Source: Mobula hypostoma (lineage: Eukaryota). From it: a stretch of 64,000 bases of DNA. Where the stretch lies: assembly GCF_963921235.1 (NCBI RefSeq), contig NC_086108.1, positions 10,044,001 through 10,108,000 on the forward strand. Reading direction: 5' to 3'. Shown here piece by piece: positions 14,030 to 63,072 of the stretch (position 1 is the stretch's first letter; the number at the start of each line of letters is the position of its first letter). Under the pieces are notes generated by a model. That model was not told where the DNA came from, searched no databases, and saw only the letters and a program-made list of their open reading frames with translations. A program made the position numbers and the translations under genes.

Positions 14030-14240
14030 CTCCCGTCAGACTCCTTTACTTCAGCCCTTTACCTCTTCCACCAGTCACCTCCCCTCTCACCTGGTCTCAC
14101 CTCTCACCTACCAGCTTGTATTCCTTCCCCTCACCTTATTCTGGCCTCTGCCCCCTTCCCTTCCAGTGCTAATGAGGGGTGTCTATTCCCTCTATTGATG
14201 TTGCCTGACTTAGAGTTTCTCCAGGTTTTGTGTGTGCTGG
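14030..14240 (+). mobile_element. Degenerate Penelope-like pseudo-LTR fragment
   Basis: Pyrimidine-rich body plus CCAGTGCTAATGAGGGG..GATGTTGCCTGAC..GAGTTTCTCCAG..GTGTGTG, homologous to 16010-16522. Confidence 0.65.
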
Positions 14241-14349
14241 CAATCATAAAACAGATTTCTTATTCAAATGAGATTTCTTATCCAACTGCATTTAAAAATG
14301 TGGTTTGATTTTTGTCTAGTCTCACAGAGGCAGATTACTGGGTTGCCAC

Positions 14350-14580
14350 AGGGCATCAGAGGTCAGAGTTCAATTCCGGAATTTTCTGTTAGTAAGACTG
14401 TATGTTCTCTCCGTGTGTACGTGGGTTTCCTCCCACAGTCTAAAGATGTACGGGTTAGTAGGCTAATTGGTCATTGTAAATTGTCCCGTGATTAGGCCAG
14501 GGTTAAATAGTGGGTTGCTGGGTGACGTGGTTCAGAGGGCTGGAAGGGCCTGTTCTACATTATACTTAAAATAAAAGAAA
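14350..14580 (+). mobile_element. V-SINE fragment
   Basis: GTTCAATTCC B-box; GGGTTTCCTCCCACAGTCTAAAGATGTACGGGTTAGTAGG. Confidence 0.75.
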
Positions 14581-14892
14581 ATTACTATTTCAAGGAGCCT
14601 ATGCCTCTGATCTTTGTTTCATTATCCCTTTGTCATTTCTAGTTTAACCTGGGCTGGAGTGGTAAAATTTAGCTCATAAAAAGGAATAGGGTGTCAGCGT
14701 GAATCAACCATTAATCCTGTACAATTTGATTCTCCCAACAGTCGGGTATCTTGGATTTCAAACACCACCCGACTGCTCCATCTTATACAGGGACACATCC
14801 ACCCTCCGCGTGGTGGTGTGCCCCCACTGTGAAACTGACAAAGCAGTAATCACCATGTGTCGTGTTACACAGTGAGATGTCCGCCCTCCTCT

Positions 14893-14997
14893 GAAGGCAG
14901 GGGGATGACTGGAAGAATTGGATCAGCCCTTGATTGAACGGCAAAGCAGACTTGATGGGCTGAATAACTTACTTCTGCTCCTATATCTTGTGGTCTT
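14893..14997 (+). mobile_element. Isolated CR1 3' tail, same subfamily as 13786-13890
   Basis: AAGGCAGGGGGATGACTGGAAGAATTGGATCAGCC...CCTATATCTTGTGGTCTT. Confidence 0.85.
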
Positions 14998-15340
14998 AAC
15001 AGTTATTACCCCTCAGTCATCAGGCTCTTGAACCAAAGGGGATAGTTTCACTCAACTTCACTCATCCCATTATTGAAATGTTCCCACAACCAGTGGACTC
15101 ACTTTCAAGGACTCTTCATCTCATGTTCTTGATGTCTAATGCTTATTTGTTTACTATTATTATTTCTTATTTTGCATTTACACAATTTGTTGTCTTCTGC
15201 AGTCTGGTTGAATGTCCTAGTTTAGCAGTCTTTTGTTGATACTGTTATGGTTATTATTCAATAGATTTATCGAAAATTAATCTCAGGGTTGTATATGGTG
15301 GCATATATGTAGTTTGATAATAAATTTAATTTGAACTTTG
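14998..15340 (+). mobile_element. Rex1/Babar LINE, right half (3' UTR) of the element split at 9663
   Basis: AACAGTTATTACCCCTCAGTCATCAGGCTCTTGAA, collinear with 52147-52460; GATAATAAA..TTGAACTTTG tail. Confidence 0.85.
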
Positions 15341-15611
15341 AGGTTTGTTGAAATCTATTTGTAAAGTGAAACCACTAATAGCTCTGCCTTTAGTACAGAT
15401 GTTCTGTTGCCAGCCAAGGCCTCTCACATTATTTTCCTCTTCCAACGTAAACGTGATCTGTGACTACAATTGCTAGTCATTAGACTGAACTTCATCATCT
15501 TAATAGCCTTATTTTTTGAATGCTTGAAAATTCCTTGAAAACTCTGAATATATCTCATCAAATCCTTCAACTCAATCACCCAAATCTTTTCAGGTAGCTG
15601 CTATTCTCAAA

Positions 15612-15895: not shown

Positions 15896-15994
15896 ACTTA
15901 GAATTGATCTACTCCTGTTGCTGCTGAGCGATATTGTGACAACCCATAATGCGACAGAAGATGTCTTTCTGATATTTCTGAGGAAAACTTTGTC

Positions 15995-16522
15995 GTGATG
16001 ACGCCACACTCAGGTTGGAGGAACAACACCTTAGATTCCGTCTGGGTAGCCTCCAACCTGATGGCATGAACATTGGTTTCTCTATCTTCTGTTAATGCCC
16101 CTCCTCCCCTTCTTACCCCATCCCTATTTATTTATTTATTTATTTCTCTCTTTCCCTCTCACAATAACTCCTTGCCTCTTTTCCATCTTCCTCTGGTGCT
16201 CACCTCCCCCTTTCTTTCTTCCAAGGCCTTCCGTCCCATGATACTCCCCCTTCTCCAGCCTTGTATCCCTTTTGCCAATCAACTGTCCAGATCTTGGCTT
16301 CATCCCTCCCCCTCCTGTCTTCTCCTATCATTTTGGGTCTCTCTCTCCCCCTCCCACTTTCAAAGCTCTTAATATCTCTTTTTTCCATTAGTCCTGACGA
16401 AGGGTCTCGACCTGAAACATCGACTGTACTTCTTCCCATAGAAGCTGCCTGGCCTGCTGCGTTCACCAGCATTTTGTGTGTGTTGCTTGAATGTCTAGCA
16501 TCTGCAGATTTTCTCATGTTTG
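15995..16522 (+). mobile_element. Penelope-like element 3' end: GIY-YIG C-terminal remnant plus pseudo-LTR
   Basis: TLRLEEQHLRFRLGSLQPDGMNI coding remnant, pyrimidine-rich UTR, hammerhead motif. Confidence 0.85.
16390..16425 (+). ncRNA. Minimal type I hammerhead ribozyme motif
   Basis: AGUC-CUGACGA-A-GGGU(CUCG)ACCU-GAAA-C-AUC-GACU: helix I AGUC/GACU, intact core, helix II, AUC triplet. Confidence 0.8.
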
Positions 16523-17722: not shown

Positions 17723-18994
17723 AGTGAACAACGCTACCAAATTCTGATGGTCTCCTGATGGTCCATGAAACAATTTCTTTCACTTATATCATGTCTTTTT
17801 TTTCTTTGAAATGTGGTTCTGGTACTGCTGTAGCCTGCGATCTACAGTTTAACGATGTGTTTTTGGATCAGTTGAGTGATCTGGTGCTTTGTTATCTCTG
17901 AGGTGCTCATGGGGGTGGGAGGTGAATGGCCTTGAAGCCAAGAAGCTTTGAGACAGGGTGTGAGCCCACAATGGACTCCATTTCTCATGGGTCTTGTTTT
18001 TTTAAAGTGTTGAGGAAGGTTGAAACATCGAGGCGAGTGCAAAAGATGAGTGAGTGTTCAGTGCCATCACCCAGCCTCTCACTCGCTGCTCCTGAGGGAA
18101 GTCCCTGCATTCGAATAGTCTCTCCAACTACCTCGATGTGGTTGCAGGATGATATTAAAGTTCTGGGTCTGTGGTTTGTGGATTGGGCTAATGAACATGG
18201 AGCTGAACTGAATGTGGACTCTTTCGATTAGTGTTTTATTTTCTGAGTTTTCGCTCATTCCTTCTGGCTGCCATTTGCATGACTTTTTTGTGCTTGGTGG
18301 GTGAGGTTAATAATCTTGTTGCCGTTTGCAAAATTTGTTTTTTTTTGTGCTTGGGGGTGAGTGGGGTGATAGAGTGGGGTAGGTGAGTGGGGACAGAGGA
18401 GGGGAGGTGAGTGGGGGATGGAGAGTGGGGGACGGGGCATAGAGTGGGCGTGAGTGGGGGGTGAGTGGGGGGGATGAGTGGGGAATAGTTGGAAGATCAT
18501 TAGTGGAGAAATGATAAATGGAGGCAGAGAGAGGAAAAATAACAATAAGATAATAGCAGAGAAAGCTTGTGGGAAGGGAGCAAATGCATGTGTGTTCTTC
18601 TCTCTATCTGTACGCCTCCATGTATCATTCACCTTCCACAGTCCCGACTCTATCTCCCACACCTGGTGGAACCTGTCGATTATCCTGCTCCCCTCCTCAC
18701 TCCACCGATCACCTCTGAGCCCTGTCTTGCCTCACCCCTCGACTCCTTATTCCAGCCATCTCTTCTCTCCACTCCCGTCTTGAAGAACTGAAGTGTTGAC
18801 TGTTCCTTTCCTCCCGCAGATGCTGAGCTCCCTGCTGAGCTTTTTCCAGCAGATTGTGTGCTGCTGCAGGTTACGGGTTCCCATCCTGGGCTCCACGGAC
18901 CCCTCGGTTAATGGGAAGGCTCCGTCACATAAATAAGGTTGGGGACTCCTGCTCCAGGTCGTGGGCAATTGCCTGCTGACTCACTTACTCTGAG

Positions 18995-21912: not shown

Positions 21913-22176
21913 TAAAAATATAGATAGATAGATAGACAAACTAATAGACAGATAATAAATAAATAATACTGAGAACATGAGCTGTAGAGTCCACAAAAGT
22001 GAGTCCATAGTTTGTGAAATCAGTTCAGAGTTGAGGTGATAATGATGCAGAAGGAAGCTGTTCATTGCCCAGGTGTGTGACTCCATTCGGCCCATTCCCC
22101 TCTCTCATTCGCTTGTACCCTCTGTAACTTATCCTCTCTCACACTTGCCCATCAATCCCCTTTGACCATCGTTAAC

Positions 22177-23210
22177 TTGACTGGGGTACCGCAAGGCTCA
22201 GTGCTGGGACCCCAGTTGTTTACAATATATATTAATGACTTGGATAAGGGAATTAAATGCAGCATCTCCAAGTTTGCGGATGACACGAAGCTGGGTGGCA
22301 GTGCTAGCTGTGAGGAGGATGCTAAGAGGATGCAGGTGACTTGGATAGGTTGGGTGAGTGGGCAAATTCATGGCAGATGCAATTTAATGTGGATAAATAT
22401 GAAGTTATCCACTTTGGTGGCAAAAATAGGAAAACAGAATATTATCTGAATGGTGGCCGATTAGGAAAAGGGGAGGTGCAGCGAGACCTGGGTGTCATTA
22501 TACACCAGTCATTGAAAGTGGGCATGCAGGTACAGCAGGCGGTGAAAAAGGTGAATGGTATGCTGGCATTTATAGCGAGAGGATTCGAGTACAGGAGCAG
22601 GGAGGTACTACTGCAGTTGTACAAGGCCTTGGTGAGACCACACCTGGAGTATTGTGTGCAGTTTTGGTCCCCTAATCTGAGGAAAGACATCTTTGCCATA
22701 GAGCGAGTACAAAGAAGGTTCACCAGATTGATTCCTGGGATGGCAGGACTTTCATATGAAGAAAGACTGGATGAACTGGGCTTGTACTCGTTAGAATTTA
22801 GAAGATTGAGGGGGGGATCTGATTGAAACGTATAAAATCCTAAAGGGATTGGACAGGCTAGATGCAGGAAGATTGTTCTCGATGTTAGAGAAGTCCAGAA
22901 CAAGGGGTCACAGTTTGAGGATAAAGGGGAAGCCTTTTAGGACCGAGATTAGGAGAAACTTCTTCACACAGAGAGTGGTGAATCTGTGGAATTCTCTGCC
23001 ACAGGAAACAGTTGAGGCCAGTTCATTGGCTATATTTAAGAGGGAGTTAGATATGGCCCTTGTGGCTACGGGGGTCAGGGGGTATGGAGGGAAGGCTGGT
23101 GCAGGGTTCTGAGTTGGATGATCAGCCATGTTCATAATAAATGGCGGTGCAGGCTCGAAGGGCCGAATGGCCTACTCCTGCACCTATTTTCTATGTTTCT
23201 ATGTTTCTAT
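22177..23210 (+). mobile_element. Young 5'-truncated CR1 LINE
   Basis: [41 protein letters not shown]; (TTTCTATG)n tail. Confidence 0.95.
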
Positions 23211-24983: not shown

Positions 24984-25479
24984 GGCTGAATACACTGTGA
25001 CCATGTTATTCAGTACGCCCTGTATCTAATAACATGGCCAATTCGTGGATGTTTGTGGTCTTCTGCTGTTGTTACCCATCCACTTCAAAGTTCAATGTTG
25101 TGTGTTCAGGGATGGTCTTCCATACACCACTGTCTCCTTCCTGTCAGCTTGAACCAGTCTGGCCATTCTCCTCTGTCCTCTCTCATCAATCCCTGAATAA
25201 AGAGTCAGTGGCAGGACTGGAAAGGAAGGGGGAAGAAGCCAGAAAAAGAGAGTGAGTAGGGCGAAGGGGAAGGAGTACAAGCTGGGAGGTGATAGGTGGA
25301 AATGGTAAAGGGCTGAAGAAAAACAATTTTGATAGGGTAGGAGAGTGGACCATTGGAGAAATGGGACCTCGTGCTATACTAAGGTAGTGATTAGGGTTCA
25401 AGAACTGAATGGCTGAAGGGAAATAGCCTTTTCTGAACTTGATGTGGTTGGACTTCAGGCTTCTGTACCATCGCAGTAA

Positions 25480-25770
25480 CACAAACAGAATGCTGGAGGA
25501 ACTCAGAAGGCTAGGCAGCATCTATGAAAAACAGTCATCATTTCAGGCTGAGACACTTCTGCAGGACTGAGGAGGAAAGGGGGAAGATGCCAGAATAAAA
25601 AGGTGGGGGGAGGGGAAGGAGGCTAGCTGGAAGGTTGTGGGTGAAGCCGGGTGGGTAGGAAAGCTAAAGGGCTGGAGAGTGGACCATAGGAGAAAGAGAA
25701 GGAGGAGAGGACCCAAAGGTATGTGATAGGCCGGTGAGAAGAAGTGAAAAGTCAGAATAGAGGAGGGGAG
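25480..25770 (-). mobile_element. Penelope-like pseudo-LTR with mutated hammerhead core (CUGCAGA)
   Basis: Reverse complement CAGTCCTGCAGAAGTGTCTCAGCCTGAAATGATGACTG. Confidence 0.75.
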
Positions 25771-26699
25771 GCCCATTCTCCCAATCTGTCTGTCTTTCTG
25801 CATAGTTTCTGCTTCCTCAGTACCACTTGTGTTTCCAACTATCTCCGTATCATTCGTGAACTTGGCCACAAAGCCAACAGTTCCATCATACAGATTATTG
25901 TCACATAACAAGTGGTTGCCACAGGGACACCTGGGGAACACCACTAGTCACAGGTAGCCAAGCAGAATAGGCCTCCTTTATTCCCATTCTTTTCCTCCTG
26001 CCAGTTATCCCATCTTCTATCCGTGTGGGTATCTTTCCTGTCATACCATGAGTTCGACATTGAGATGCTGCCACATGATTGGCTGATTAGATATTTGTAT
26101 TAATGAGCTGGTGTACAGGTGTACCTAATAAAGTGGCCACTGAGTGTGTGTGTTGCTTTGCGACAGCAGGATGGCGCAAGAAATCAAACTTACTAAAAGA
26201 CAAAACATAGAACTGTCCAGCACAGTACAGTCCTTTATTCAAAGTTAAAGAATTTCAGGACATATGCTGGTGATATTAAACTGATTCTCATTCAGTCTTC
26301 TTCAGGGATCAGACAGTTACCAAGGCCTTGCTGAAGTATTCCTGCTTTGATTGGTTTGTCTGACAGGGCAAGTTCAGGTCATTTAAAAGTTCAAAGTGAA
26401 TTTACTATCGAAGTACATGTACATTATACAACCTTGAGATTTGTCGCCTTACAAGTAGTCACACCACAGCTCTCAGTTTAGGTGGATGGGCCTCGATTCT
26501 GCCTCTCCTCCGCTCTACCTGCCTGGACTTTGCCTAGAATATGTCTCGACCTCACCCTAACCTCACCTCGCACCCTCACACTTGTCCCCCCGCCAACCCC
26601 CCCGACCCAGCCTTGCTTTTGCTCACCTCTTCATTATTTGTGGAACCATTGACCATAATTTTTTGCAGAAAAAGTTTTTTGCAGAGAAGTACTTAGTTG

Positions 26700-27180
26700 C
26701 AAACACGAGTAAGTCTGCAGATGTTGGAAATCCAGAGCAACACACACAAAATGCTGGAGGAACTCAGCAGGTCAGGCAGCTTCCATGAAAAAGAGTAGAC
26801 AGTCGACATTTCAGACCGAGACCTGTCTTCAGGACTGGAAAGGAAGGGGGAAGATGCCAGAATAAAAAGATGGGGTGAGGGTATGGAGGCTAACAAGAAG
26901 GTAACAGGTGAAGACAGGTGGGTGTGAAAGATAAAGGTCCGGAGAGGAAAGAGTCTGACTGGAGAGGAGAACGGACAATAAGAGAAACGGAAAAAGGAGG
27001 GGACCTGGGGGAAGTAATAAGCGAGTGGGAAGAAGTGAAATGTCTGAGTCGGGAATAGAGGTGGGGGGTGGAGGACGTTCGTTCACTGGATGAAGAAATG
27101 GATATTCGTGCCATTAAGTTGGAGGCTACCCAGATGGAATATAAGGTGTTGCTCCTCCACCCTGAGGGTGGCCTCATCTT
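26700..27180 (-). mobile_element. Penelope-like 3' end (GIY-YIG tail plus pseudo-LTR)
   Basis: Antisense GATGAGGCCACCCTCAGGGTGGAGGAGCAACACCTTATATTCC..GGGTAGCCTCCAAC. Confidence 0.85.
26800..26837 (-). ncRNA. Minimal type I hammerhead ribozyme motif
   Basis: CAGUC-CUGAAGA-C-AGGU(CUCG)GUCU-GAAA-U-GUC-GACUG. Confidence 0.78.
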
Positions 27181-27392
27181 GACAGAACTGCTTGTGGCAG
27201 ATGGTGCAGAGATGAACGACGAGGCAGTCCTGCCCAGTAATAGCTGACAATTTGGCATGTTACAGATGGTGGGAATATTTGCTGATGGGTTTTACCTTCT
27301 TTAGGCTATACCTCCTGTAGATATGACCAATAGTGGGGAGGGGTGCACACTTAGTGTGTTTACATGGGAATTTAAGCCAGCATTACTTATTC

Positions 27393-28935: not shown

Positions 28936-29105
28936 AAGCAACACACATCAAAGTTGCTGGTGAACGCAGCAGGCCTGACGGAGGGTCTCGGCCTGAAACG
29001 TCGACTGTACCTCTTCCTAGAGATGCTGCCTGGCCTGCTGCGTTCACCAGCAACTTTGATGTGTGTTGCTTGAATTTCCAGCATCTGCAGAATTCCTCAT
29101 GTTTC
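28936..29105 (+). mobile_element. Short Penelope-like insertion with an inverted 5' segment and a hammerhead motif
   Basis: Perfect 40-bp inverted repeat 28936-28975 / 29032-29071 around CTGACGGAGGGTCTCGGCCTGAAACGTCGACTG; interrupts a Rex1 3' tail. Confidence 0.85.
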
Positions 29106-29829
29106 CGATGATACTAAACTTGATTCTCACGTTGATAAGGCCTAGTTTGGAGTATTGTGTGCAATTCTGGTCAACTACCTACAGGAAATATATAAACATT
29201 ATTAAAAGAGTGCAGAGAAAATTTAAGACCATAAGACATACGGGAAAAATTAGGCCATTTGGCCCTTTGAGTCAGCTTCACCTTTCCATCATGATTGATT
29301 TATTATCCGTCTCAACCCCATTCTCCTGTTTTCTCCCTGTAACCTTTGCACCCTGATTAAGCAAGAACCTATCAATCTCTGACTTAAATATATAAACAAT
29401 GAACTGGTCTTCACAGCCACCTATGGCAATGAATTCTGCAGGTTTACCACCCTTGGGCTAAGGAAATGTTTCCTCATTTCTGTTCGAAGTGGACATCCCT
29501 CAATTCTGAGACCTCTGGTCCTAGACTCCCCTACCAAAGGAAGCATCTTCTCCTTGTCCACTCTATCGAGGCCTTTCAATATTCAATAGATTTCAATGAG
29601 ATCTCCCCCCTCTCCCCCTTATTCTTCTTAAACTCCAGTGAGTACAGGCTGGAGCCCTCAAACGCTCCTCATATGTTAACCCTTTCATTCCTGGGATCAT
29701 TCTTGTGAACTTCCTCTAGATGCTCTCCAATGCCAACACATTGTTCCTCAGATAATGGGCCCAAAACTGCTCACAATCCTCTATGTGTGGTCTGACCAAT
29801 GCCTTATAAAGCGTCGGCATTACATTTGC

Positions 29830-30390
29830 CAACAGTGGAACTTCCCGGTGGCCATGCATTTTAATTACAGCTCCTATTCCCTTTCCAACATGTTGATCCA
29901 TGGCCTCCTCTTGTGCCAAGATGAGGCCACGCTCAGGGTGGAGGAGCAACACCTTGTATTCCAACTGGGTAGCCTCCAACTTGATGGCATGAATATCGAT
30001 TTCGCCTTTGTGGTAATTATCTTCCCTCCCCTTCTCCTATTCCTCTATTCACCACTCTGGCCTTTTACCTCTTCTCATCTGCCCATACTTCCCCTGGGCC
30101 CCCTCCTCCTTCCTTTTCTCCCATAGTCCACTCCCCTCTCCTATCAGATTCCTTTCTCTCCGCCCCTTGACCTTTCCCATCCAGCTGGCTTCAGTTATCA
30201 CCTTCCAGCTAGCCTCCTCCCTCTCCCCCTCCCAGCTTTTCATTCTGTTGACTTTCTCCTTCCTTCTCAGTCCTGAAGAAGGGTACCGGCCTGAAATGTC
30301 GGCTGTTTATTCCTTTCTATGGATGCTGCCTGACTTGTTGAATTTTGTGTGTGTTGCCTAGGATTCCAGCATCTGCAGACTTTCTTGTGT
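29830..30390 (+). mobile_element. Penelope-like 3' end (GIY-YIG C-terminus plus pseudo-LTR)
   Basis: FPVAMHFN..SLSNMLIHGLLLCQDEATLRVEEQHLVFQLGSLQLDGMNIDF. Confidence 0.88.
30268..30305 (+). ncRNA. Minimal type I hammerhead ribozyme motif
   Basis: CAGUC-CUGAAGA-A-GGGU(ACCG)GCCU-GAAA-U-GUC-GGCUG. Confidence 0.78.
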
Positions 30391-32683
30391 ATATAATAAG
30401 CATTACATTCTTGCTTTTGTACTCTAGTTCTCTCGAAATGAATGCTAAACATTGCATTTGCTTTCTTCACCACTGAATGAGCCTGGAAGTTAACCTTTAG
30501 TGAATCCTGCACAAGGAGCCTTTGCACCTCTGATTTTTGAACTTTCTCCCTAATTAGAAAGTAGTCCATAGTTTATTCCATCCGCCAAAGTGCAAGTCCA
30601 TAACTTCCCTCCTCTGTATTCCATTTGCCACTTCTTTGCCTATTCCCTCAATCTGTCTAAGTCCTTCTGCAGACACCCTGCTATCTCAGTACTACCTGCC
30701 TCCCATCTATCTTTGTATCGTCTAAAAACCTGGCCACAAAGTAATCAATTCCTTCATCAAAATCATTGACATACAACGTGAAAAGAAGCCGTCCCATACC
30801 AGCCCCTCTGGAACACCACTAGTCACTGGTAGCCTACCAGAAAAGGCCTCCTATCAGTCAGCCAGTATTCTATCCATACTAGTACCTTTCCTGTAATACC
30901 ATGGGCTTTTATCTTGTTAAGCGGCCTTGTGTGTGGCATCTTGTCAAAGGCATTCTGAAAATCCAAATAAACAACATCCACTGACTCTCCTTTGTCTATT
31001 CTGCCTGTTATTTCCTCAAAAAATTCCAACAGATTTGTCAGGCAAGATTTCCCCATGCTTACTTTGGCTTATTTTGACATTTGCAATTTTCCAGCCCTCT
31101 GGAACCATGCCAGAATCTGTTGATTCTTGAAAGATCATTACTAATGCGTCAACAGTCTCTTAAACTACACCTTTCAGAACCCTGGGGTGCAGTCCATCAG
31201 GTCCAGGTGACATATCTAGCTTCAGACTTTTCAGTTTCCCAAGCATCTTCTTAATAATAGCAACTTCACTCACTCCTGCCCCTTGCCACTCTTGAACTTC
31301 CAGCATACTGCTAGTGTCTTTCACAGTGAAGACTGATGCAAAATACTTGTTCAGTTGGTCCGCCGTTTCCTTGTCCCCATTACTATCTCTCTAGGGTCAT
31401 TTTCCAGCAGTCTGACTTTCAACCTTGTCAGTCTGTTTACACTTTATGTACCTGAAAAAGGGTATCATTTATGATATTATTGGCTAGCTTACCCTCATAT
31501 TTCATCTTTTTCTCCTTTATTGTGTTTTTAGTTGCATTCTGTTGATTTTTAAAAATTTCCCTATTGTTGAACTTCTCACAGATTTTTGCTCTATCATATG
31601 GTTTATGGCCTATTTGCTTTAATGTTGGCTTTGACTTCTCTTGTCAGCCACAGTTGAATCAACCTGCCTTTAGATTACTTCCATTTTTAGGATATATCTA
31701 TCCTGCACCTTCTGAATTGTTGCCAGAAACTCCAGCCATTGCTGCTCTGTCGTCATCCCTGTGAGTGGCCCTTTCCAATAAACTTGGGCCAGCTCCTCTC
31801 TCATGCCTCTATAATTCCTTTTACTCCACTATAATATTAATGCATCTGACCTTAGCTTCCCCCTCTCAAACTGCAGGGTGAATTCTATCGTATTCTAACA
31901 CTGTTACTTAAGGGTTCTATTAACTTCAGCTCCTTAACCATATCCAGTTTATTATACAACACCCAGTCTGGAATTGCCTCGAGTGGGCTCAACCACAAGC
32001 TGCTCCAAAAAGCCATCTTGGAAGCATTCTACAAATTAGCTCTTTTGGGATCCAGCAACAATTTGATTTTTCCCATCTGCCAGCATATTGAAAGTTAGTC
32101 CCATGACTAATGCAACATTGCCTTTTTGACGTGCTTTTTCTACCTCCCATTGTAATTTGTAGCCCACATCCTGGCTACTGTCCAAAGGCCTGCCTATACC
32201 TCCCACCAGAGTCTTCCTACCCTTGCAGTTTCTTAACTCTACTTACAAGGATTCTACATCTTCTGATCCTATGTCACCTCCTTCTAAAGATTGGATTTCA
32301 ATTTTTACCAGCAGAGCCTCTGCCCAGCTGCCTGCCCTTTCAATAGATAGTGTACCCTTGGATATTGAGCTCCCAACTATAATCGTCTTTCAGCCATGAC
32401 TCTGTGATACCTGCCAATCTCCAACTGCGCTACAAGATCTTATTTCATACACTGAGTGCATTCAAATATAAGATCTTCATTCCTGTATTTGTCACCCTTT
32501 TAAATTTTGCCCTCCTTTTACACTGCAACCTATCCCACTGACTGTAATTTTGCCAACATCCCTATCCCCAGCCCTATCATTCTGGTTCCCATCCCCCTAC
32601 CAAATTACTTTAAATCCTCCTGAACAGCTCCAGAAAACCTGCTGGCAAGGATATTGATCAGCCTTAGGTTCAGGTGTAGACTG

Positions 32684-37009: not shown

Positions 37010-37384
37010 AGCCTCCCCAGCATTGAGAAATCTTTAAAAGGTGTTGCCTCAAAAAGCCAGCATCCACCATTAAAGGATCTCCATCAGCTAGTACATGCCC
37101 TCTCTTCATTGCTACCATCGGGAAGGAGGTACAGAAGCCTGAAAGCACACGCAATGATTCAGGAACAGCTTCTTCCCCTCTGCCATCTGATTTCTGAATG
37201 GACTTTGAACCAATCTATGAACACAACTTCTTTAATTTTTCTCTTTTTGCACTACTTACTTAATTTAATGTTTTAATATATTTATTGTAATTTATAGTTT
37301 GTGAAAATGTCTTGTATTGTACTGCTGCCACAGAATAACCAATTTCATGACACATGTCAGCGATATGAAAACTGATTCTGATTC
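37010..37384 (+). mobile_element. Rex1/Babar 3' fragment
   Basis: HALSSLLPSGRRYRSLKAH; CTGATTCTGATTC tail. Confidence 0.75.
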
Positions 37385-37863
37385 CCTCTCTACAGATGCT
37401 GCCTGACCTGCTGAGCACTGCAGCATTTTCAGTCTTTGGGTCTTGCAATAGTTTTGCTGCCTATCCGTCCAACACTTTTGGTGCATCAATTGGGACACGT
37501 GTTGTCACTTAAATCAGGATTTTCTGACATAGACCAATGGGAAATGGAATGAGCTTTTGGAACTTGCCGAGAGTTGATGTTCTTTGGCAGAAAAGCATAA
37601 AGTAAGTATGCAAATTCTCCTCCGTGCAGGTGCACTTATACATTTACATGGTAGTTAATGTTCACCATCAACGTTGTTACATGCTCTGTCATTGGCAAAT
37701 TTTTCTACAGAAGTGGTTTGCCATTACCTTCTTCTGGGCAGTGTCTTTACAGGACGGGTGACCCCAGCCATTATCAATACCTTTCAGATATTGTCTGCCT
37801 GGTGTCAGAGGTGGCATAACCAGCACTTGTGATCTGCACCGGCTGCCGGGGGTGGAGGATTAA

Positions 37864-42430: not shown

Positions 42431-42911
42431 TCACACACACAGATACATTTCATACAGAGACACAGACACAGTCACACAGTCATACACACACCCACAAACT
42501 CACACATACTGATACACACACAAACACACACACACGCAGGAGATACAGACACACATACACGCACACAGACACTCACACATAAACACACACACATACACAC
42601 ATAGACATACATAGACAAACACACACACACAAACACAGACACACTAATACAAACACAGAGACAGATAGACACACACACACACACACACACATACGCGCAC
42701 ACATACGCGCACACGGTCTCACACACACACATACACACTTGCACACAGACATAGACACACACACACATGAACACACACAGACACAATACACACACACACA
42801 AACCTACACAGACAAACACACACACACACACACACGCACACAGACATAGACACACACACATATGAGCACACACAGACACAATACACACACACACACACAA
42901 ACCTACACAGA

Positions 42912-42953
<42 letters not shown>

Positions 42954-45050
42954 CACACACACGCGCACACAGACATAGACACACACACATATGAGCACAC
43001 AGAGGCACACACACACACTAATAAACCCACACACTAACAGACACACTGATACACACACAGTCACACATAATGCATACACACACACAAACCCACATGCACA
43101 AACACACACACTGACACACACACAGACACATGCACTCACTCACTCACACTCACAGACACAAACACAGATACACAGAAATGTACACATATACAATCACAGA
43201 CACACACTGGCATACACACAGACACAAGCACACACACAGGCTCACATATATATGCACACAAACACACACTGACATACAAACACAGACAGACACACACTCA
43301 CTCACTCACACACTCACACACACACACATACACACATACATACATACACACACATAGAGAGTCAGACACACGCAAGCACACACAAACACACACACAGACA
43401 CACATATACACACAGAGACACATATACATACACAGACATATACACAGAGACACACACAAACACAGACACATGGAAATGCATACATACACACACAAACACA
43501 TACACACAGACACAAGCACACACAGACTTGCATACATATGCACACAAACACACACACTGACACACACAGAAACACACATATGCATATACACACACAACAC
43601 ACACAGACACTGACAGACACACACACTCATACACACGCATATGCACACATACAAACACTAGCACTCACACACGGACAGACACTCACACACACTCGCTGTC
43701 AAACACACACACACACAAGCACATGTACACACACTTACACATAGACACACAGAGAAAGACAGACAGACAGACACACACACACACACAGACACACAGAGAC
43801 AAACACAGACAGAGACAGACACGTGCACAAGCACAAATACACACACATATAGACACCACACACACACATACGCACATAAACACACAAATGCACACAGCTC
43901 TGGCAGATGCACACACTCAAAGACATTCACACACACTCCCACACATAGACACACAGACACTTGGATGCACACACAGACAGATGCGCACACACATACAGCA
44001 GACACTCACACGCACCCATAACCACAGACAGACTCACACACAAACACACACACAGACACCTACACACCCTTACACACAGACTCACACATAAACACACAGA
44101 CACACAGAGACAGACAGATGCACATGCACATACAGACAGACACACACACTCTCTCACACACACAGTTAGTGACAAACACATGCACTGACAAACACAGACA
44201 TATACACACACACACACACACATTTACACACAGACACACACACTACACACACAGACACTGACACACACACTCATACACATACATACACATGCATTTACAC
44301 ATGGACACACAAATACACATACACACACAGACATCACACACATAAACACTCACTAACACACTCTCAAACACATACACACAGACACAGATGCACATAAATA
44401 CACATACCCACACAGACAGCACACACACATGAACACACACTAACACCCTCTCACACACTAACACCCTCTCACACACATACACACACCAACATACACACTC
44501 ACACACATACACACATATGCACATACACCCACAGACACACAGAGACACACGTGCACACAGACACACACACATCCACTCACACACACAAATTCACAAACAC
44601 ACACACATACACAAACACACACACACACACTTGCCCACACACATACACGCATATTTACACACAGACACTCATACATAACCATGCACACAGACAGACACAC
44701 ACACAGACACTCGCACACACACACGTGCACATACTTACACACACACCCTCACACACAAACATACAGAGAGAGAGACACACATACAGACAGACAGACACAA
44801 ACACACACACAGGCACATATGCACATATACAGACATATGCACATATACAAATGCACATATACAGACACACGCACGCACACACACACGGACAGACACACAC
44901 TCAAACACACTAACACACTCACACACATTCACACATATGCACATACACAGGCACACACATTTACACAGAGCCACACACACACATACACAAACACACACAT
45001 TTACACACAGACACACACACACTTACAGACAGACGGACACACACACACAC
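42431..45050. repeat. 2.6-kb degenerate (CA)n-rich tract
   Basis: Continuous CA/ACAG/ATAC repeats. Confidence 0.97.
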
Positions 45051-45987: not shown

Positions 45988-46530
45988 AAGGTAAAGGGCT
46001 GAAGAAGAAGGAATCTGATGGGAGAGGAGAGAGGGAAGGAGGAAGGGCACCAGGTGGAGGTGATGGGCAGGCGAGGAGAAGAGAAGAGGTAAGGGGGTAA
46101 CCAGAATAAGGAATGGAAAGTGAAAGAAAGGGGGAGGATTGATAAATTACTGGAAGTTAAAATAATTGATGTTCATGCCTTCAGGTTGGAGGTGTTGCTT
46201 CTCCAGCTCCTGAGTTTGACCGAATCACGGCATTTGGGGAGGACACGGACCAACTTGTCAGAATGGGAACGGAAAGTCGAATTGAAATGGGTGGCGGGGA
46301 GTGTGAGTGTGCTCAGCAACGTGGTCCGCTGATCTATGCTGGGTCTCCTTTGGGGAGTACTGGCTACAGTAAGCAACCACAAAAGCCTTACGGATGATTT
46401 GTCACTTCACCCGGGAGGAGGTGAAGGGGCAGGTGTAGCACTTGTCCTGCTGGCAGGGAGACTTGCCAGGAGGGACACCAGTGGAGGTGGATGAATGGAC
46501 AAGGGAGTCACATGGAAAGTGATCAGCTGT
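45988..46530 (-). mobile_element. Penelope-like fragment including the Cys-rich linker before GIY-YIG
   Basis: DSLVHSS..PGKSPCQQDKCYTCPFTSS; LPATHFNSTFRSHSD. Confidence 0.75.
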
Positions 46531-51162: not shown

Positions 51163-51654
51163 TTACGGCCTGGCATGGCCCAAACAATGGTGGCTCAAAG
51201 GACAACTCTCCGCTTGCACTTGAATTATTCCTATTGGCCTCTTCCAATGAGTTCCTCTTATTGATCGGTCGCTCATGAACTCAGAGAAATCGCTGCGAAA
51301 CTCGGACTTTAAAATCTCGCTCGCTGTCCTGATTAAAAAGTAACTCTTTTTATGCGCCCCTGATGTGGATTGTCCAACTCAGAGAAAACTGGCTCGAAGC
51401 TCTGCTTTTTAAGTAATGGCCCTCATCAGCCTGGACATGCCCTCTTGTCATTGCTACCATCCAGGAGGAGGTTCAGGAGCCTGAATACTCAATGTTTTAA
51501 GAACATCTTCCTACCCTCCACCATCAGATTTCTGAAAGGACAATGAACCCATGGACACCACCACAGTATCTTGCTCTCTTCTTGCGCTGCCTATTTAATT
51601 TTTAAAAATATAGTTGTAATCTATAGTATATTTTATGTATAGCTGATTATAGGC

Positions 51655-52462
51655 TTCAAGAGAGGGAAACCAGAGGTCCATGAGCCAGTTCTCACTGGAG
51701 GATCAGAGGTGGAGAGGGTTAGCAGCTTTAAATTCCTGGGTGTTTCTTTTTCACAGGACTTGTCCAGGGCCCAGCACTTGTGCAATTGTGAGGAAAACAC
51801 AGCAGCACCTCTACCTCCTCAGGACTCTGGATAGATTCAGCACAACATCGAGAATTTTGGCAAATTTCTGTAGATGTGTGGTTGGGAGTGCACTGACCAG
51901 TTGCATCCCAGCCTGGTATGGAAACACCAATACCTTAGAACAGAAAATCCTACAAAGAGTAGTGGATTCAGCTCTGTCCATCACGGGTAAAGCCGTCCCA
52001 ACCATTGAGCACATCTACATGAAATGATGTCATAGGAAAGCAGCATCCACCCAGCAGACACCCACCACCCAGGCCATGCTCTCTTCTGGCTGCTACCATC
52101 AGGTAGAAGGTACAAGAGCCTCAGGACTCTTACCACCAAGTTCAGGAACAGTTACTACCCCTCAACCATCAGGCTCTTGAAGAATAGGGGATAATTACAT
52201 TCACTTGCCCCATCATTGAGATGCTCCCACAACCAATGATCTCACTTTAAGGACTCTATCTCATGTTCTCAGTATTTATTGCTATTTATATATATTTGCA
52301 TTTGCACAATTTGTTGTCTTCTGCACTCTGGTTGATCTTTCATTGATCCTGTTGCAGTAACTATTCTATAGATTTATTGAGTATGGCTGCAGGAAAATGA
52401 TTCTCAGGATGGTATATGGTGACATATATGTACTTTGACAATAAGATTTACTTTGAAGTTTG
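51655..52462 (+). mobile_element. Rex1/Babar LINE 3' portion; uninterrupted reference for the split copy at 9428-15340
   Basis: KTQQHLYLLRTL..FCRCVVGSALTSCIPAWYGN..KILQRVV. Confidence 0.88.
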
Positions 52463-55365: not shown

Positions 55366-55934
55366 TCACGATGAATAGCAGCTTTTGAAGATGTCCTCTA
55401 TGGTGGGAAGGGTTGAAGCTGGCTGAATCAATAACTCTCTGCAGCCTCTTGTAATCCTGTACATTGTCCCTACGTACCAGGCTGTGATGAACCAGCCGGA
55501 AAGTTCTCCACGGTGCCTCTGTAGAAATTCACAAGAGTGTTTGGTGTCAGACCAGATCTCCTCAAACTCCTAATGGGGCAGAGCTGCTGGTGTGCCCTTT
55601 TCACGTTTGTGTCGATGTGTTGAGCCCAGGATAGATCCTCTGAGACGTTGACTCCCAGGAACCGGAAGCTGCTCACCCTGACCTCCATTGACCCCCTCAA
55701 TGAGGGCCCTTCAATGGTGCGTCTTCTCCTGACTTCCCCTCACAGTTGGAGTCACACCAATTTTTGTTGACTCTGTGCCAGTCCAAGTTATGGACCCAGT
55801 CTTGTGGTTGCAGGAGGGAAGTGCAGGGAAGATGGTCACTCCAGTCCCTCGACCTTCTGCTCACAATGAGTTCCCATGTGTTCATATCGGCTCATTACGT
55901 GTACACCAGGAATCCACTCAGTCCCAAATGCAAA

Positions 55935-56305
55935 AAAATCTACAGATGCTTGAAATCCAGAGCAGCACACATACAAAACACTGGAGGAACTCAGCAGGTC
56001 AGGCAGTACATATGAAGAGGAATAAACAGTCGATGTTTCAGGCTGAGACCCTTCACCAGGACTGGAAAGGAAGGGGGAAGATGCCAGCATCAGTAGATGG
56101 GCGGAAGGGAATAGAATGCAAGTTGGAATTTGACAGGTGCAGCCAGATGGGTGGGGGAGGGAGAGAGGATGAAGTAAGAAGCTGGAAGGTGATAGGTTGA
56201 AGAGGTAAAGGGCTGGAGAAGAAGGAATCTGATAGGAGAGGAGAGTAGACCATGGGAGAAAGAGAAGGTGAAGGGGCAGCAGGAGGGGTGATAGGCAGGT
56301 GAGGA
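55935..56305 (-). mobile_element. Penelope-like pseudo-LTR; hammerhead motif at 56027-56064 with core substitution (CUGGUGA)
   Basis: Reverse complement CAGTCCTGGTGAAGGGTCTCAGCCTGAAACATCGACTG. Confidence 0.8.
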
Positions 56306-56486: not shown

Positions 56487-56501
56487 AAGAAAGAGAGAGA
56501 G
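56420..56501. repeat. (GA)n microsatellite
   Basis: Direct observation. Confidence 0.9.
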
Positions 56502-57899: not shown

Positions 57900-58144
57900 T
57901 GTATGTCACTGTGTGGTGGGTTTCTGCCTCTCCCACCCTATGGGGCAGGCACTTCCAGACCACCAGCAACCAGCAACTTCTGGATGAAATTAATGGTCCT
58001 TCTTCCAAATCTCTGCCCTGGGCTTTTGAGGGAAATCACTCCTTATACTCACTTTCTAGCCCTTGTGTGATTTTATGTCCAGGTTTCACCCCTCAGCACC
58101 CTCTGTGCCAAATGAAAACAATTCCAGTCTGCCTATACTCTTTT

Positions 58145-58670
58145 GAAGGCAAATGCAATGTTAGCATTCAGTGTGAGAGGACTAGAATGCTCAGGCTTTA
58201 TAAGGCACTGGTGAGGCCTCACTTGGGGTATTGTGCGCAGTTTTAGGCCTCTTATCTAAGAAAGGATGTGCTGGTATTTGAGAGGGTCCCGAGGAGGTTC
58301 ACAAGAATGATTCCAGGAATGAAAGGGTTAATGTATGAAGAGCGTTTGATGGCTCTGGGCCTGAACTCACTGGAGTTTAGAAGAATAAGGGAGGATCTCA
58401 TTGAAACCTATCAAATATTTAAAGGTAAACACAAGAGATTATGCAGATGCTGGAAAATCAAAACAATACACATAAAATGGTGGAGGACCTCAGCAGGTCA
58501 GGCAGTATCAGTGGAGAGGAATAAATATTGAAAGACCACGGGGCTCAGAATAGAGGGACATCCACTTGGAATAGATATGAGGAGGAATTTCTTTAGCCAG
58601 TGGGTGATGAATCTATGGAATTCATTGCCACATATGGCTGTGGAGGCCAAATCACTGGATTTATTTAAGG
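58145..58670 (+). mobile_element. CR1 3' fragment with a short antisense Penelope piece (~58427-58530)
   Basis: LRLYKALVRPHLGYCAQF; RRFTRMIPGMKG. Confidence 0.8.
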
Positions 58671-59390: not shown

Positions 59391-59552
59391 GCAGTTAGTC
59401 ACATTTTCACTTTCAAGGAACTATAGACCTGAGGTCTCTCTGCTCATCAACACCCCTCAGATTCTGCAGCTTCACTATGTTCTACCTTGATGTGACTTCC
59501 CAAAGCACATCACGTAGCACCTCTTGGGACTTGCATTCAGGTTCAGTCAACC

Positions 59553-61480
59553 CAAAGTTCGGGGTACATTTATTATCAAAGTATGTATACATTTTACAAC
59601 CTTGAGATTTGCCACAATACAAAGACTCCCAAAAGAACCCATAAGCAAAGAAGCCTGTCAGGCACCCAATGTGCAGAGAGAGAAGAGAACAGATTGTGCA
59701 AACAATCAAAGAATGCAAATAGCATTCCAAACAAAAGTGAGTTGATAGACTCGAGCCTGGAGCAGTCCACAGCCTCAGCCTCAGTTCAGTGCAGAGCCCT
59801 CAGACACAGAGTCTGGAGCAGGCCAAGGCCTCGGCCTCAGTTCAGTGCAGAGCCCTCAGACACAGAGCCTGGAGCAGGCCACGGCCTCAGCCTCAGTTCA
59901 GTGCAGAGCCCTCAGACACAGAGTCTGGAGCAGGCCAAGGCCTCGGCCTCAGTTCAGTGCAGAGCCCTCAGACACAGAGTCTGGAGCAGGCCAAGGCCTC
60001 GGACTCAGTTCAGTGCAGAGCCCTCAGATACAGAGCCTGCAGCAGGCCACAGACTCAGCTTCAGTTCAGTGCAGAGCCCTCAGACACAGAGCCTGCAGCA
60101 GGCCTCAGCCTCAGTTCAGTGCAGAGCCCTCAGACAGAGAGCCTGGAGCAGGCCACGGCCTCAGCCTCAGTTCAGTGCAGAGCCCTCAGACACAGAGCCT
60201 GGAGCAGGCCTTGGCCTCAGTTCAGTGCAGAGCCCTCAGACACAGAGTCTGGAGCAGGCCAAGGCCTCGGACTCAGTTCAGTGCAGAGCCCTCAGACACA
60301 GAGCCTGCAGCAGGCCACAGACTCAGCTTCAGTTCAGTGCAGAGCCCTCAGACACAGAGCCTGCAGCAGACCACAGACTCAGCTTCAGTTCGGTGCAGAG
60401 CCCTCAGACACAGAGCCTGGAGCAGGCCTCGGCCTCAGTTCAGTGCAGAGCCCTCAGACACAGAGCCTGGAGCAGGCCACGGCCTCAGCCTCAGTTCAGT
60501 GCAGAACCCTCAGACACAGAGCGTGGAGCAGGCCTCGGCCTCAGTTCAGTGCAGAGCCCTCAGACACAGAGCCTGGAGCAGGCCTCGGCCTCAGTTCAGT
60601 GCAGAGCCCTCAGACACAGAGTCTGGAGCAGGCCAAGGCCTCGGACTCAGTTCAGTGCAGAGCCCTCAGACACAGAGCCTGCAGCAGACCACAGACTCAG
60701 CTTCAGTTCGGTGCAGAGCCCTCAGACACAGAGCCTGGAGCAGGCCTCGGCCTCAGTTCAGTGCAGAGCCCTCAGACACAGAGCCTGGAGCAGGCCACGG
60801 CCTCAGCCTCAGTTCAGTGCAGAGCCCTCAGACACAGAGCCTGGAGCAGGCCTCGGCCTCAGTTCAGTGCAGAGCCCTCAGACACAGAGCCTGGAGCAGG
60901 CCACAGACTCAGCTTCAGTTCAGTGCAGAGTGGAGTAAATATCATGGAACCCTCAGACACGAAGCTGGAGTAGTCAGGACAGGCCACAGTTGCAACCTCA
61001 GTTCAGAATATAGTGGAGCAAACGTAACGGAGTATCGAACAGAACCAGCCCGACCCTCGCCTCTGGTCCCGACACCCTGCCTTTTCAGTCCATCTGGCCC
61101 GGCATTTAAATCGTCCAAACACTGGATCACTCCTCGCACTAGGACTCAGTCCCTGTCGCATCGATACACTCTGGGTCTGGACCCTGCTGCCACGTTCTGG
61201 CCCGTATCCAACCTTTCCTGGCGCTTAGATCAATCAATCCTCACTCTCGGTTCAGGTGGACGGGCCTTGACTCTGCCTATCCTCCACTCTGCCTTTGCTC
61301 TGCTCCACTCACCCTGACTTTGCCTTGAATAGGCCTCAATCTTGCCCCAACCTTGCCTCGAACATTCCTCGACCTCACCTCGCACTCACATGCTTCGACC
61401 CTCGACTCAGCTTTGCTATCGCTTGCCTGTCCATTATTTGTAGTGATCGTTTACCAAAAATAAATGTAAACACCATAATC
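59553..61480 (-). mobile_element. Family Y element carrying an expanded internal minisatellite
   Basis: Flanks collinear with 27393-28010. Confidence 0.8.
59752..60930. repeat. Minisatellite, 50/56-bp units (GCAGAGCCCTCAGACACAGAGCCTGGAGCAGGCCACGGCCTCAGCCTCAGTTCAGT), ~21 copies
   Basis: Unit starts at 59791, 59847, 59903 ... 60869. Confidence 0.97.
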
Positions 61481-61805
61481 AGTGAGTTGTTTTTTTTTGT
61501 TGGTCTCCCCTCTCTCTGAGTGACACCTCTCAGCCCCTTTGTTGGGGAGAGAGGTATCCTATGGCTTGCTGAACTGTTGGGTGAACAATGGTTTTTGTTG
61601 GACTGCAGATCATGGTTTCTGTTGGGGGCTTTGCTATTGTTTCCTTGGTGGGTGGAAGGTGAAGATGCTTTTTGCTGAAGTAAGTGGTGGTGGGGAAGGA
61701 TTGATTTTCTGCTGCTGCTTGTGTGTGGGGGGGGGGAGTAGGGGGGCTTTGGAATTCTATGTTTTTACTGACCCACTCTTTTGGGTTCCCTTCTGTTTTT
61801 GTGGA

Positions 61806-62446
61806 TTAGATTAGATTAGATTAGATTATGAGGACACGCAGTCCTCTTTTATTGTCATTTAGTAATGCATGCATTAAGAAATGATACAATATTCCTCCGG
61901 TGTGATATCACAGAAACACAGGACAGACCAAGACTGAAAAACTGACAAAAACCACATAATTATAACATATAGTTACAACAGTGCAAGTAATACCATAACT
62001 TGATGAAGAACAGGCCATGGCACAGTAGAAAAATTCAAAGTCTCTCGAATGTCCCACATCTCACGCAGACGGGAGAAGGAAGAAAACTCTCCCTGCTATG
62101 CCCGGCCACAGTCCGACTCTGAGTCATCCGAAAACTTTGAGCCTCCGACCAGCCCTCCGACACCGAGTAGTGAGCACCATCTCTATCCGAACACTTCGAC
62201 CTCAGCCTCGGTCGCTCAGCAGCAGGCAAAGCCGGGGATTTTGGGGCCTTCCCTCCGGAGATTCTCGATCGCACAGTAGCAACAGCAGCGAACCGGGCAT
62301 TTCAGAAATTTCTCCAGATGTTCCTCTGTGCCTTCTCACGTCTGTCTCCATCAAATCAGAAATGTGCACGGCATCCTACTTACAAATACGATATCATTTC
62401 ACTGGAGAGCTGTGCACACTGCGTCACGCCACCATCTTCTCCTCCT
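61806..62446 (-). mobile_element. Family X copy 3 (full length) with (TCTAA)n tail
   Basis: Similar to 2636-3252; inserted within a plus-strand Rex1-type tail (GTGGA|TATCTGC). Confidence 0.85.
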
Positions 62447-62889
62447 ACCCCTATCTGCAAAGAACAAGAATTTCAGGTTGTATATTTTTTACATTCTTTG
62501 ATATTAAATGGAACCATTGAATGATTGAAATGTTACCAGAAAAAGTGTTATTAATAAAGTATTTACTACAATTGTACTCTTTGTTTTAGTTTGCTGCAAG
62601 TAAGTAGTCGCTGTGCTTCACAGTGCCATCTTAAGCCGAAATTCCATGGAAAATCCCACCTTTCCCTGGCATCAACGCAGTTATCTGCTGTTGCAAAGCT
62701 TTCAAGGCAAGGGTGTCCCCTGTGTGAGCAGGAGGCCAAGCTAATTTGTAGTGAAGTTTAAGCTTTGCACAAAGAGTGTATAATTCGTCACTCCAAAGTG
62801 AAGTCTCTTTGAGAGATGCCTATCCGAAGAAGTTTAAATCTTCTCTATGATGAGCGTTCAGTGAAACACTGTCTCACTGCTTCTCCTCT

Positions 62890-63072
62890 GAGCCAACTAG
62901 CCTCCATCCCCTCCCCACACCATTTTATTCTATCTTCCCCCTCTTCCTTTCCAGTCCTGAAGAAGGGTCTTGGCCCAAAACATTATTTCCTTAGGTACTG
63001 CCTGACTTGCTGAGTTCCTCCGGCATTGTGTGTGCGTGTTATTCTGGATTTCCAGCATCTGCAGAATCTCTC
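62890..63072 (+). mobile_element. Penelope-like pseudo-LTR with damaged hammerhead (GAAA changed to AAAA, helix I 3' strand lost)
   Basis: CCAGTCCTGAAGAAGGGTCTTGGCCCAAAACATT...CTGACTTGCTGAGTTCCTCC..CCAGCATCTGCAGAATCTCT. Confidence 0.75.

Follow-up and report, generated by a model that had tools for sequence, protein, structure and literature searches.

Minimal hammerhead sequences in a Mobula hypostoma genomic window as probable decaying ends of an abundant Penelope-type retrotransposon

The hammerhead motifs in the window (the 64,000-nt stretch of Mobula hypostoma contig NC_086108.1 analyzed here, positions 10,044,001 to 10,108,000) are genuine minimal hammerhead sequences and, judged from the DNA alone, decaying end fragments of a highly abundant Penelope-type element. 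They are most likely carried along in 5'-truncated insertions of a Penelope-like retrotransposon that is autonomous and bears an endonuclease, and in which the ribozyme would be relevant, if at all, only in source transcripts. The pairing of hammerheads with Penelope-type elements is already described, and the preliminary description of this DNA had placed minimal type I hammerheads in Penelope-like pseudo-LTRs, a reading that the present analysis supports.

Hammerhead motifs and element remnants in the window

Inspection of the window sequence reveals that all nine hammerhead sites of the preliminary description bear the sequence described for them. A strict minimal-hammerhead descriptor recovers the three cores listed as intact, with exactly three matches (C3 at 16394 (+), 26832 (-) and 30273 (+)) versus 0.03 on average when the window was resampled 200 times under a Markov model. 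The core CUGANGA, GAAA and UH, closed by helices I and II, is present in these three copies and in full-length copies of the element, and is broken at the other six of the nine sites.

The first intact motif (16389..16426, +; G10.1-U11.1; predicted cleavage at 16421/16422) lies in a 5'-truncated younger-family copy (15991..16522, +) comprising the GIY-YIG C-terminus (15991-16089; tblastn 85% over 33 aa), the 3' UTR, the hammerhead and the tail, which matches a full-length copy at 78% over 545 blastn columns. The other two, likewise identified by descriptor and sequence, lie in 5'-truncated older-family copies that also keep the GIY-YIG C-terminus. The motif at 26800..26837 (-; A10.1-U11.1; helix II with two G-U pairs; predicted cleavage at 26805/26804) belongs to the copy at 26699..27187 (-; C-terminus 27095-27187, tblastn 74% over 31 aa), and that at 30268..30305 (+; G10.1-U11.1; helix I with one G-U; predicted cleavage at 30300/30301) belongs to the copy at 29830..30393 (+; C-terminus 29830-30006, tblastn 68% over 59 aa, E 5e-21). 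Helix III had been described as an ACGU-like palindrome, which is lost in all three intact cores (ACAU, AUGU and AUGU, respectively). The only window copy with ACGU is that at 28975, in which A9 is changed to G and helix I is broken; it forms part of a young-family head-to-head insertion (28936..29107; 93% to a full-length copy) that consists of an inverted 42-nt tail piece (28936-28977, -) and a copy truncated at the 5' edge of the hammerhead (28970-29107, +).

The remaining copies are more eroded. Sequence, blastn and nhmmer comparisons identify older-family copies at 25441..25756 (-), with A6, U16.1 and C17 changed in the hammerhead at 25532-25569, and at 55925..56303 (-), with A6 changed to G and helix III ACAU in the hammerhead at 56027-56064. 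At 62800..63079 (+), a frame-start fragment (62800-62890) is fused to an older pseudo-LTR whose hammerhead (62952-62984) carries G12 to A and has lost the 3' strand of helix I (sequence, tblastn, nhmmer). Old remnants at 14050..14240 (+; nhmmer E 8.5e-18, alignment) and 18730..18870 (+; nhmmer E 5.8e-9) retain, respectively, a hammerhead relic at about 14160-14185 with its 3' half deleted and a motif with helix II deleted, and a remnant at 25212..25298 (-; nhmmer E 0.0032, blastn) ends just inside the first core bases of the hammerhead. Additionally, tail-only remnants that had been overlooked are present at 37378..37430 (+; nhmmer E 6.4e-8) and 58428..58522 (-; nhmmer E 2.7e-19), and a decayed linker/GIY-YIG remnant lies at 46150..46509 (-; tblastn 34%, E 3e-10), with no hammerhead detected alongside. 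The repeat-end profile used with nhmmer gives 13 matches in the window, 12 of them with E<1e-3; six of the 13 had been in the profile seed, and a shuffled-window control gave a match at E<1e-3 in 1 of 10 cases.

The proposed Rfam check returns no hammerhead match at gathering level in the window and none at E<=10 on a young copy, which is expected because the motif lacks helix III and is thus not evidence against it. The set of motifs had been called dense; the genome-wide count of 59,093 intact family motifs predicts 1.1 per 64 kb, and by inspection no window copy fits the descriptor behind that count, so that the density of the window is ordinary. Sequence flanking 30 further loci (91 kb in all) holds 37 more remnants, an overestimate to which linked inverted partners and two overlapping loci contribute. 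Within the window the copies stand alone: two intact cores share a strand, 13.9 kb apart, and the window holds no hammerhead-bearing tandem array. These hammerhead copies are old and probably inactive.

The parent element and the ends of its copies

A complete element spans 3,514 nt. Its single frame encodes RT, zinc linker and GIY-YIG and is preceded by a partial repeat of the element's 3' end, so that a hammerhead lies on both sides of the frame. The full-length copies L062, L063 and L064 are about 98-99% alike and carry hammerheads in both repeats, and the 5' repeats of these partial-tandem pseudo-LTRs measure 376, 451 and 1,189 nt, respectively; L061 and L065 are without a 5' repeat. RT and GIY-YIG frames of 1,038-1,054 codons are present in all five loci retrieved (1,043 codons for the full-length copies); counted from the first ATG that they share, the frame has about 1,016 codons, with a long N-terminal extension. 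Pfam matches on the frame (RVT_1, E 3e-5; GIY-YIG, E 4e-4) are both under the curated cut-off. DKG, RT and CX2-5CxxC motifs are present, the last, at residues 910-918 of the L064 frame, being the zinc linker that separates RT from endonuclease, a feature common to Neptune and Nematis. The start codon (ATG at +139) comes after the hammerhead and after both clusters of 3' ends described below. Truncated 5' ends and adjacent inverted copies are seen at several loci, including L061 and window positions 28936-29107. The parent is in all likelihood an autonomous EN+ Penelope-like retrotransposon, probably of the Neptune type, its zinc linker fitting Nematis as well; only Neptune and Poseidon are reported among vertebrates in the available text of bioRxiv 2026.07.22.740005. 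The source element is probably still mobile.

The genome contains at least 59,093 intact family motifs, equally distributed on both strands, which bears out the earlier statement that the family is very high-copy; this and the other genome-wide numbers are exact-pattern counts and lower bounds. The family is very homogeneous, with 33,195 identical 35-mers. The further claim of a mostly non-autonomous family is contradicted by the intact autonomous copies and by the 5' ends, which are variable in 30 loci and reach into the RT/GIY-YIG frame. Copy 3' ends avoid the cleavage site and, in 66 of 69 alignments, fall 57-114 nt beyond it, in two clusters at +57 to +75 (35 alignments) and +101 to +114 (31 alignments), and the spacing of the clusters corresponds to the optional 30-40-bp tail of EN+ Penelope-like elements. 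Since the insertions terminate beyond the cleavage site and their 5' ends vary, a single hammerhead is carried by most copies that extend that far.

Cleavage in vivo could leave a sharp pile-up of 5' ends at the cleavage site, but none is found. Copies beginning there number 343 of 79,063 (about 1.4% after correction for pattern sensitivity), versus 100 at one control site; the corrected numbers of 5' ends are about 1,084 and 474. By eye, microhomology inversions or deletions account for 48 of the first 100 listed at the cleavage site versus 38 of 100 at the control. The excess is about twofold both before and after their removal, and a single control position is too few to interpret what remains, although an excess of this size leaves room for some cleavage in vivo. 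Among 100 listed copies, nine head-to-head pairs lie less than 120 nt apart, versus 0.3 expected in any orientation. The head-to-head insertions are joined at the hammerhead.

Constraint on the ribozyme and alternative explanations

In the explanation that we favor, reverse transcription would use RNA left uncut at the cleavage site and would begin in its tail. The ribozyme of the source element would cleave weakly, either as a dimer via ACGU or with the help of the element's protein, and its core would be retained by selection in source elements; once inserted, the motif decays like neutral DNA, with CpG sites fastest. Dimer cleavage has reportedly been described by Lunse et al. The dimer-permitting ACGU palindrome (15.2-16.2) is present in source elements.

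Catalytic positions in copies decay at about the neutral rate. The core decays at 0.59% per site versus about 0.47% neutral, the neutral rates being taken from a different, ORF-selected set of 41 alignments, and G8A reaches 4.3% versus CpG rates of 3.5-4.0%. In old copies, differences occur at 29 of 204 core versus 32 of 203 non-core cells, where one non-core test position sits at a junction hotspot and may inflate the non-core excess. Between the subfamily consensuses, 34 of 38 hammerhead positions are shared, including every core position, versus 53 of 117 upstream. The expectation that the core be better conserved than its flanks therefore holds on the upstream side; it fails for the downstream tail, which is nearly as conserved as the hammerhead (80 of 97 positions). 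At one CpG, the tolerated change C11.1U is found in 35,544 copies versus 1,395 for the core change G12A, and at another C7U is found in 2,349 versus 1,424 for G8A, whereas in other parts of the element the decay of CpGs is symmetrical (56:61). These variant counts suggest selection on the core in source elements.

Helix II pairing had been described as kept across different sequences. Over 34 distinct copies of this one family, two-sided covariation in helices I and II is found in 0 of 9 pairs, and pairing (91.4%) does not exceed that of shuffled copies (91.9%); the pairing described is thus not covariation. The G10.1-C11.1 pair, called highly conserved in a passage of PMC4209133, is lost in all three intact window cores (G-U in two, A-U in the third) and retained by 6,044 copies belonging to an older subfamily. 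In the youngest subfamily its counterpart is G10.1-U11.1, and the literature yielded no passage on how active a hammerhead with this pair is. The loss of the pair from the youngest and most amplified subfamily fits a ribozyme under weak constraint. It is conceivable, though unlikely, that the latest successful lineage spread after its ribozyme was weakened, by the change from G10.1-C11.1 to G-U and a stabler competing hairpin, and that the hammerhead inverted repeats now mainly join oppositely primed cDNAs, which would produce the short head-to-head insertions.

A decidedly less probable alternative is that source elements retain the motif chiefly as a component of the structured RNA or promoter region recognized by the RT, and that it has ceased to function as a ribozyme in the active lineage. 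The occurrence of U11.1 in the youngest subfamily and the conservation of the tail alongside the hammerhead agree with this, as does the prediction that, in context, the hammerhead fold would be a minor conformer, lying a median 8.4 kcal/mol (U11.1 copies, n=21) or 7.1 kcal/mol (C11.1 copies, n=23) above the ensemble, although these energies leave out tertiary contacts, dimers and protein help. Catalytic mutants of the anole element still insert in vitro according to the part of PMC11167929 available, and Naiads without a hammerhead are said in PMC8557442, as far as its available text goes, to proliferate well. However, the subfamilies agree at every catalytic position while their upstream UTRs are 45% alike, and tolerated variants have been amplified where core-destroying ones have not.

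The preliminary description had also proposed that dispersed copies cut any transcript crossing them or yield small or circular RNAs; neither proposal finds support here. That they cut host transcripts and shape RNA processing is very improbable: the genome-wide number of intact motifs, their equal strand distribution and the catalytic bases kept in three window copies would permit it, but copy-level constraint on catalytic positions is absent, the intact window copies are solitary and have lost the dimer palindrome, monomers gave no cleavage in the available passages of PMC4209133, and only 3 of 99 neighboring young copies have a same-strand neighbor within 4 kb. Additionally, 196 frames outside the masked 69% of the window give only transposon-type or sub-threshold Pfam matches and no host exon, a search that could miss short exons. 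That the copies form a non-autonomous family of retrozymes or SINE-like elements spreading via small circular RNAs from two hammerheads is hardly credible and already largely refuted for this window. Many copies are indeed short stubs, and vertebrates, including one chondrichthyan, are reported to have retrozymes that stem from Penelope pseudo-LTRs (bioRxiv 2026.07.22.740005, available text), but the copies form no hammerhead-bearing tandem array in the window, have no fixed 5' end, extend into coding sequence, end away from the cleavage site and, in three window cases, keep GIY-YIG coding remnants that non-coding retrozymes would not have.

Relation to known systems and significance

Minimal hammerheads in the pseudo-LTRs of metazoan Penelope-like elements were described by Cervera and de la Pena in 2014 (PMC4209133), and the available passages of that paper match the present family in the type I core without helix III, the extra base between 9 and 10.1, the palindrome at 15.2-16.2, and the prevalence of solitary motifs from truncated elements, with a few in both repeats of full elements, about 3 kb apart. 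The family differs from those described there in its number of intact motifs (59,093 of one family versus about 9,000 in Xenopus and 4,000 in coelacanth), its homogeneity, its 4-bp helix II and the G10.1-U11.1 pair of its youngest subfamily. No shark or ray is named in these passages, and no literature on shark or ray Penelope hammerheads surfaced; Lunse et al., PMC4209133 or the preprint supplements may already list the family.

As in the Neptune-clade EN+ elements of PMC8557442 (available text), the order of domains is RT, CX2-5CxxC linker, GIY-YIG endonuclease, and partial tandems, inverted 5'-truncated copies and an optional 30-40-bp tail occur, whereas the long frame with its N-terminal extension departs from that description. 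The two clusters of copy ends downstream of the hammerhead, rather than at the cleavage site, resemble those of PAc, a Poseidon element of the green anole, for which the accessible part of Frangieh et al. 2024 (PMC11167929) gives two RT start sites downstream of the hammerhead, plus a tail; the cut site of PAc lies inside the frame, whereas the hammerhead here is upstream of the start codon, and the clades differ. Animal non-LTR retrozymes are likewise high-copy repeats that contain a type I hammerhead and are related to Penelope pseudo-LTRs, but in the available text of PMC7229834 and bioRxiv 2026.07.22.740005 they are non-coding tandem units of typically a few hundred bases, whereas the copies here are dispersed and variably truncated, with coding remnants. 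The 120,000 retrozymes reported for axolotl in PMC7229834 (available text) exceed the present count.

As found in the window, the motifs are of little importance, being the decaying ends of a known retroelement class. The family as a whole is useful, since it combines young, intact coding copies with a number of intact minimal hammerheads that exceeds the counts for Penelope-like elements in earlier work (PMC4209133, available passages). This scale permits counting tests of ribozyme selection in source elements, template cleavage and host purging of active intronic motifs. If the latest lineage did spread after its ribozyme was weakened, the tens of thousands of near-identical copies would constitute a natural mutational scan of a Penelope hammerhead in vivo.

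Hammerhead motifs and other repeats in the window

A re-reading of the window finds, at all nine sites of the preliminary description, the sequence reported there. The family motif opens with helix I and CUGANGA; a single additional base and helix II (4 bp, 4-nt loop) follow, then GAAA, CG, UC and the 3′ strand of helix I. This arrangement is what Cervera and de la Pena (PMC4209133) define as the minimal type I hammerhead. Three cores had been called intact (C3 at 16394 (+), 26832 (-) and 30273 (+)); their catalytic bases are present, but the helix III palindrome and G10.1-C11.1 are absent from all three. The other four named copies are mutated as described, with A6, A9 or G12 lost. A strict descriptor recovers these three cores and nothing else in the window, where 200 resampled windows gave 0.03 hits on average, and an Rfam search of the window and one young copy returned no matching model. 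A repeat-end profile finds 13 remnants; among them are three that the preliminary description does not list as sites (25212-25298, 37378-37430 and 58428-58522) and an inverted piece at 28936-28977.

The helix III palindromes of the three cores read ACAU, AUGU and AUGU, which are both CpG-decay products of ACGU. The strands at 16417-16420 (ACAU) and 30296-30299 (AUGU) are mutually complementary; because the two intact cores on the same (+) strand are separated by 13.9 kb, this complementarity is probably chance CpG decay. Helix II pairing, thought to be kept across different sequences, shows no covariation: of the nine helix pairs compared, none changes on both sides among 34 distinct copies, in which the pairing level equals that of a shuffled control. 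Nor is the set "dense", as the motif density is ordinary for the host genome (3.48 Gb).

By self-comparison, repeats make up 69% of the window. The window also holds a 56-bp tandem array (59753-60930, ~22 copies) in which three frames are open for 410-522 codons, a 36-bp array (34856-35415, 15.6 copies) and a degenerate (AC)n tract of 2.6 kb (42460-45050). Many LINE reverse transcriptase fragments, which we take to be CR1-like, are present (6638-7747, 12485-13081, 22081-23112 and 38072-38938), some of them open for 290-370 codons. A Pfam CENP-B_N match at 33899-34045 (-) suggests a remnant of a Tigger/pogo-type DNA transposon, and an ALKBH8_N match at 51653-52024 (+) is, we assume, probably the C-terminus of a LINE.

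The element carrying the motif

Thirty motif-selected loci have their 3′ region in common, and their upstream reach varies from 3 to ~1,240 nt, entering RT-thumb and GIY-YIG coding sequence. A protein search of the genome yields 63,995 candidates, with several open frames of more than 1,000 codons among the 150 scored. All five fetched loci (L061-L065) carry such frames and are ~98-99% alike; the hammerhead lies in a direct repeat on both sides of the frame in three of them, and one has a long inverted partner. The full-length insertion in L062 is flanked by an apparent target-site duplication of ~9-11 bp (oriented 2224-6113). In L065, an open frame of 394 codons that resembles an integrase precedes the element (oriented 1-1185) and probably comes from an LTR retrotransposon. 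The element protein combines RT motifs and a GIY-YIG domain with a CX2-5CxxC linker, an architecture that PMC8557442 assigns to Neptune and Nematis. Among the protein matches listed, the two closest by identity (72% and 68%) are both named as bamboo shark, which makes a cartilaginous fish the probable host.

The end of the frame is still present in the window copies at 15991, 27187 and 29830 (85%, 74% and 68% amino-acid identity). These remnants, together with the intact frames elsewhere, contradict the description of a mostly non-autonomous family: the window set therefore consists of truncated remains of two or more autonomous families, with no separate non-autonomous one. The copies at 16390 and 28975 belong to the younger family and the remaining named copies to the older.

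By exact pattern matching, with reversed-pattern controls of 0 throughout, one 35-mer occurs 33,195 times in the genome, the pattern with C or U at position 7 fits 35,544 copies, and 59,093 fit a descriptor demanding the core, both strands of helices I and II and the palindrome. U occupies position 11.1 in the youngest subfamily, which has intact frames (35,544 copies, versus 6,044 of the C11.1 form).

Every feature tested for EN+ Penelope-like elements is found. The core of a min-HHR is likewise present, with G10.1-C11.1 lost in the youngest subfamily. The copies do not qualify as retrozymes on the features compared.

Template continuity and selection

Were new copies usually templated by cut RNA, starts at the cut should be frequent. 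Such starts number 343 of 79,063 (~1.4% after correction), roughly twice those at one control position, and about half of those listed resemble, by manual count, microhomology joins via helix I or short deletions. Because so few copies start there, the template appears to be mostly continuous across the cleavage site, whether uncut or re-ligated. Among 69 alignments, which include a few duplicated loci, 35 copies end 57-75 nt past the cleavage site, 31 end at 101-114 nt and three continue into the frame. The two clusters match the two initiation sites and tail of the anole element, whose catalytic mutants still insert and for which no RNA-seq reads end at the cut, according to PMC11167929.

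The younger and older consensus sequences agree at 34 of 38 hammerhead positions, including all core bases, compared with 53/117 in the upstream UTR and 80/97 in the tail, the "older" bin (n=24) being mixed in that a duplicated locus and a few young, short copies are among its members. Positions follow the established hammerhead numbering, in which G8 and G12 have their recognized roles. Among inserted copies, variant rates give no sign of constraint on the hammerhead: per-site variation is 0.59% at ten non-CpG core positions versus a neutral ~0.47% taken from 41 alignments of young copies, G8A stands at 4.3% versus CpG rates of 3.5-4.0%, and in old copies the differing cells amount to 14% in the core and 16% outside it. 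Ten non-core positions, one of which coincides with a junction hotspot, vary at 1.06% per site, with tolerated variants in excess. The tolerated C7U is found in 2,349 copies versus 1,424 for G8A, and C11.1U in 35,544 versus 1,395 for G12A at the same CpG; CpGs elsewhere in the element decay symmetrically. We read these patterns, drawn from copy sets of unequal ages, as selection on the source elements (full-length autonomous copies), whose inserted copies would then decay neutrally.

Folding, neighbouring copies and function

Monomer cleavage is absent and dimer cleavage weak for such motifs in PMC4209133. Predictions that take in the flanks make the hammerhead fold a minor state in source-type copies and in two of the three window cores, the exception being the core at 16394 (1.5 kcal/mol); in the youngest subfamily (U11.1), the predicted fold is ~1.2 kcal/mol less favourable than in C11.1 copies. 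The first 100 young copies listed for one contig give 20 neighbour pairs within 4 kb; 16 of these pairs are oriented head to head, nine of them less than 120 nt apart, and only three share a strand. Short palindromic insertions of this head-to-head kind, joined in or beside the hammerhead, are common (9 pairs among 100 listed copies); they are seen in the first 3.9 Mb of one host contig (G000:C1), in the window at 28936-29107 and at four further loci (L006, L018, L023 and L033). An RNA spanning such a pair would be expected to fold on itself rather than to make a hammerhead dimer. No host exons were detected in the scanned frames of the window.

A literature search, with one key paper and some supplements beyond its reach, found no paper describing the family. 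It adds a new and very large member to the already described association between hammerheads and Penelope-like elements. That the motif works as a hammerhead is unlikely for the window copies; in the source elements it may plausibly do so.
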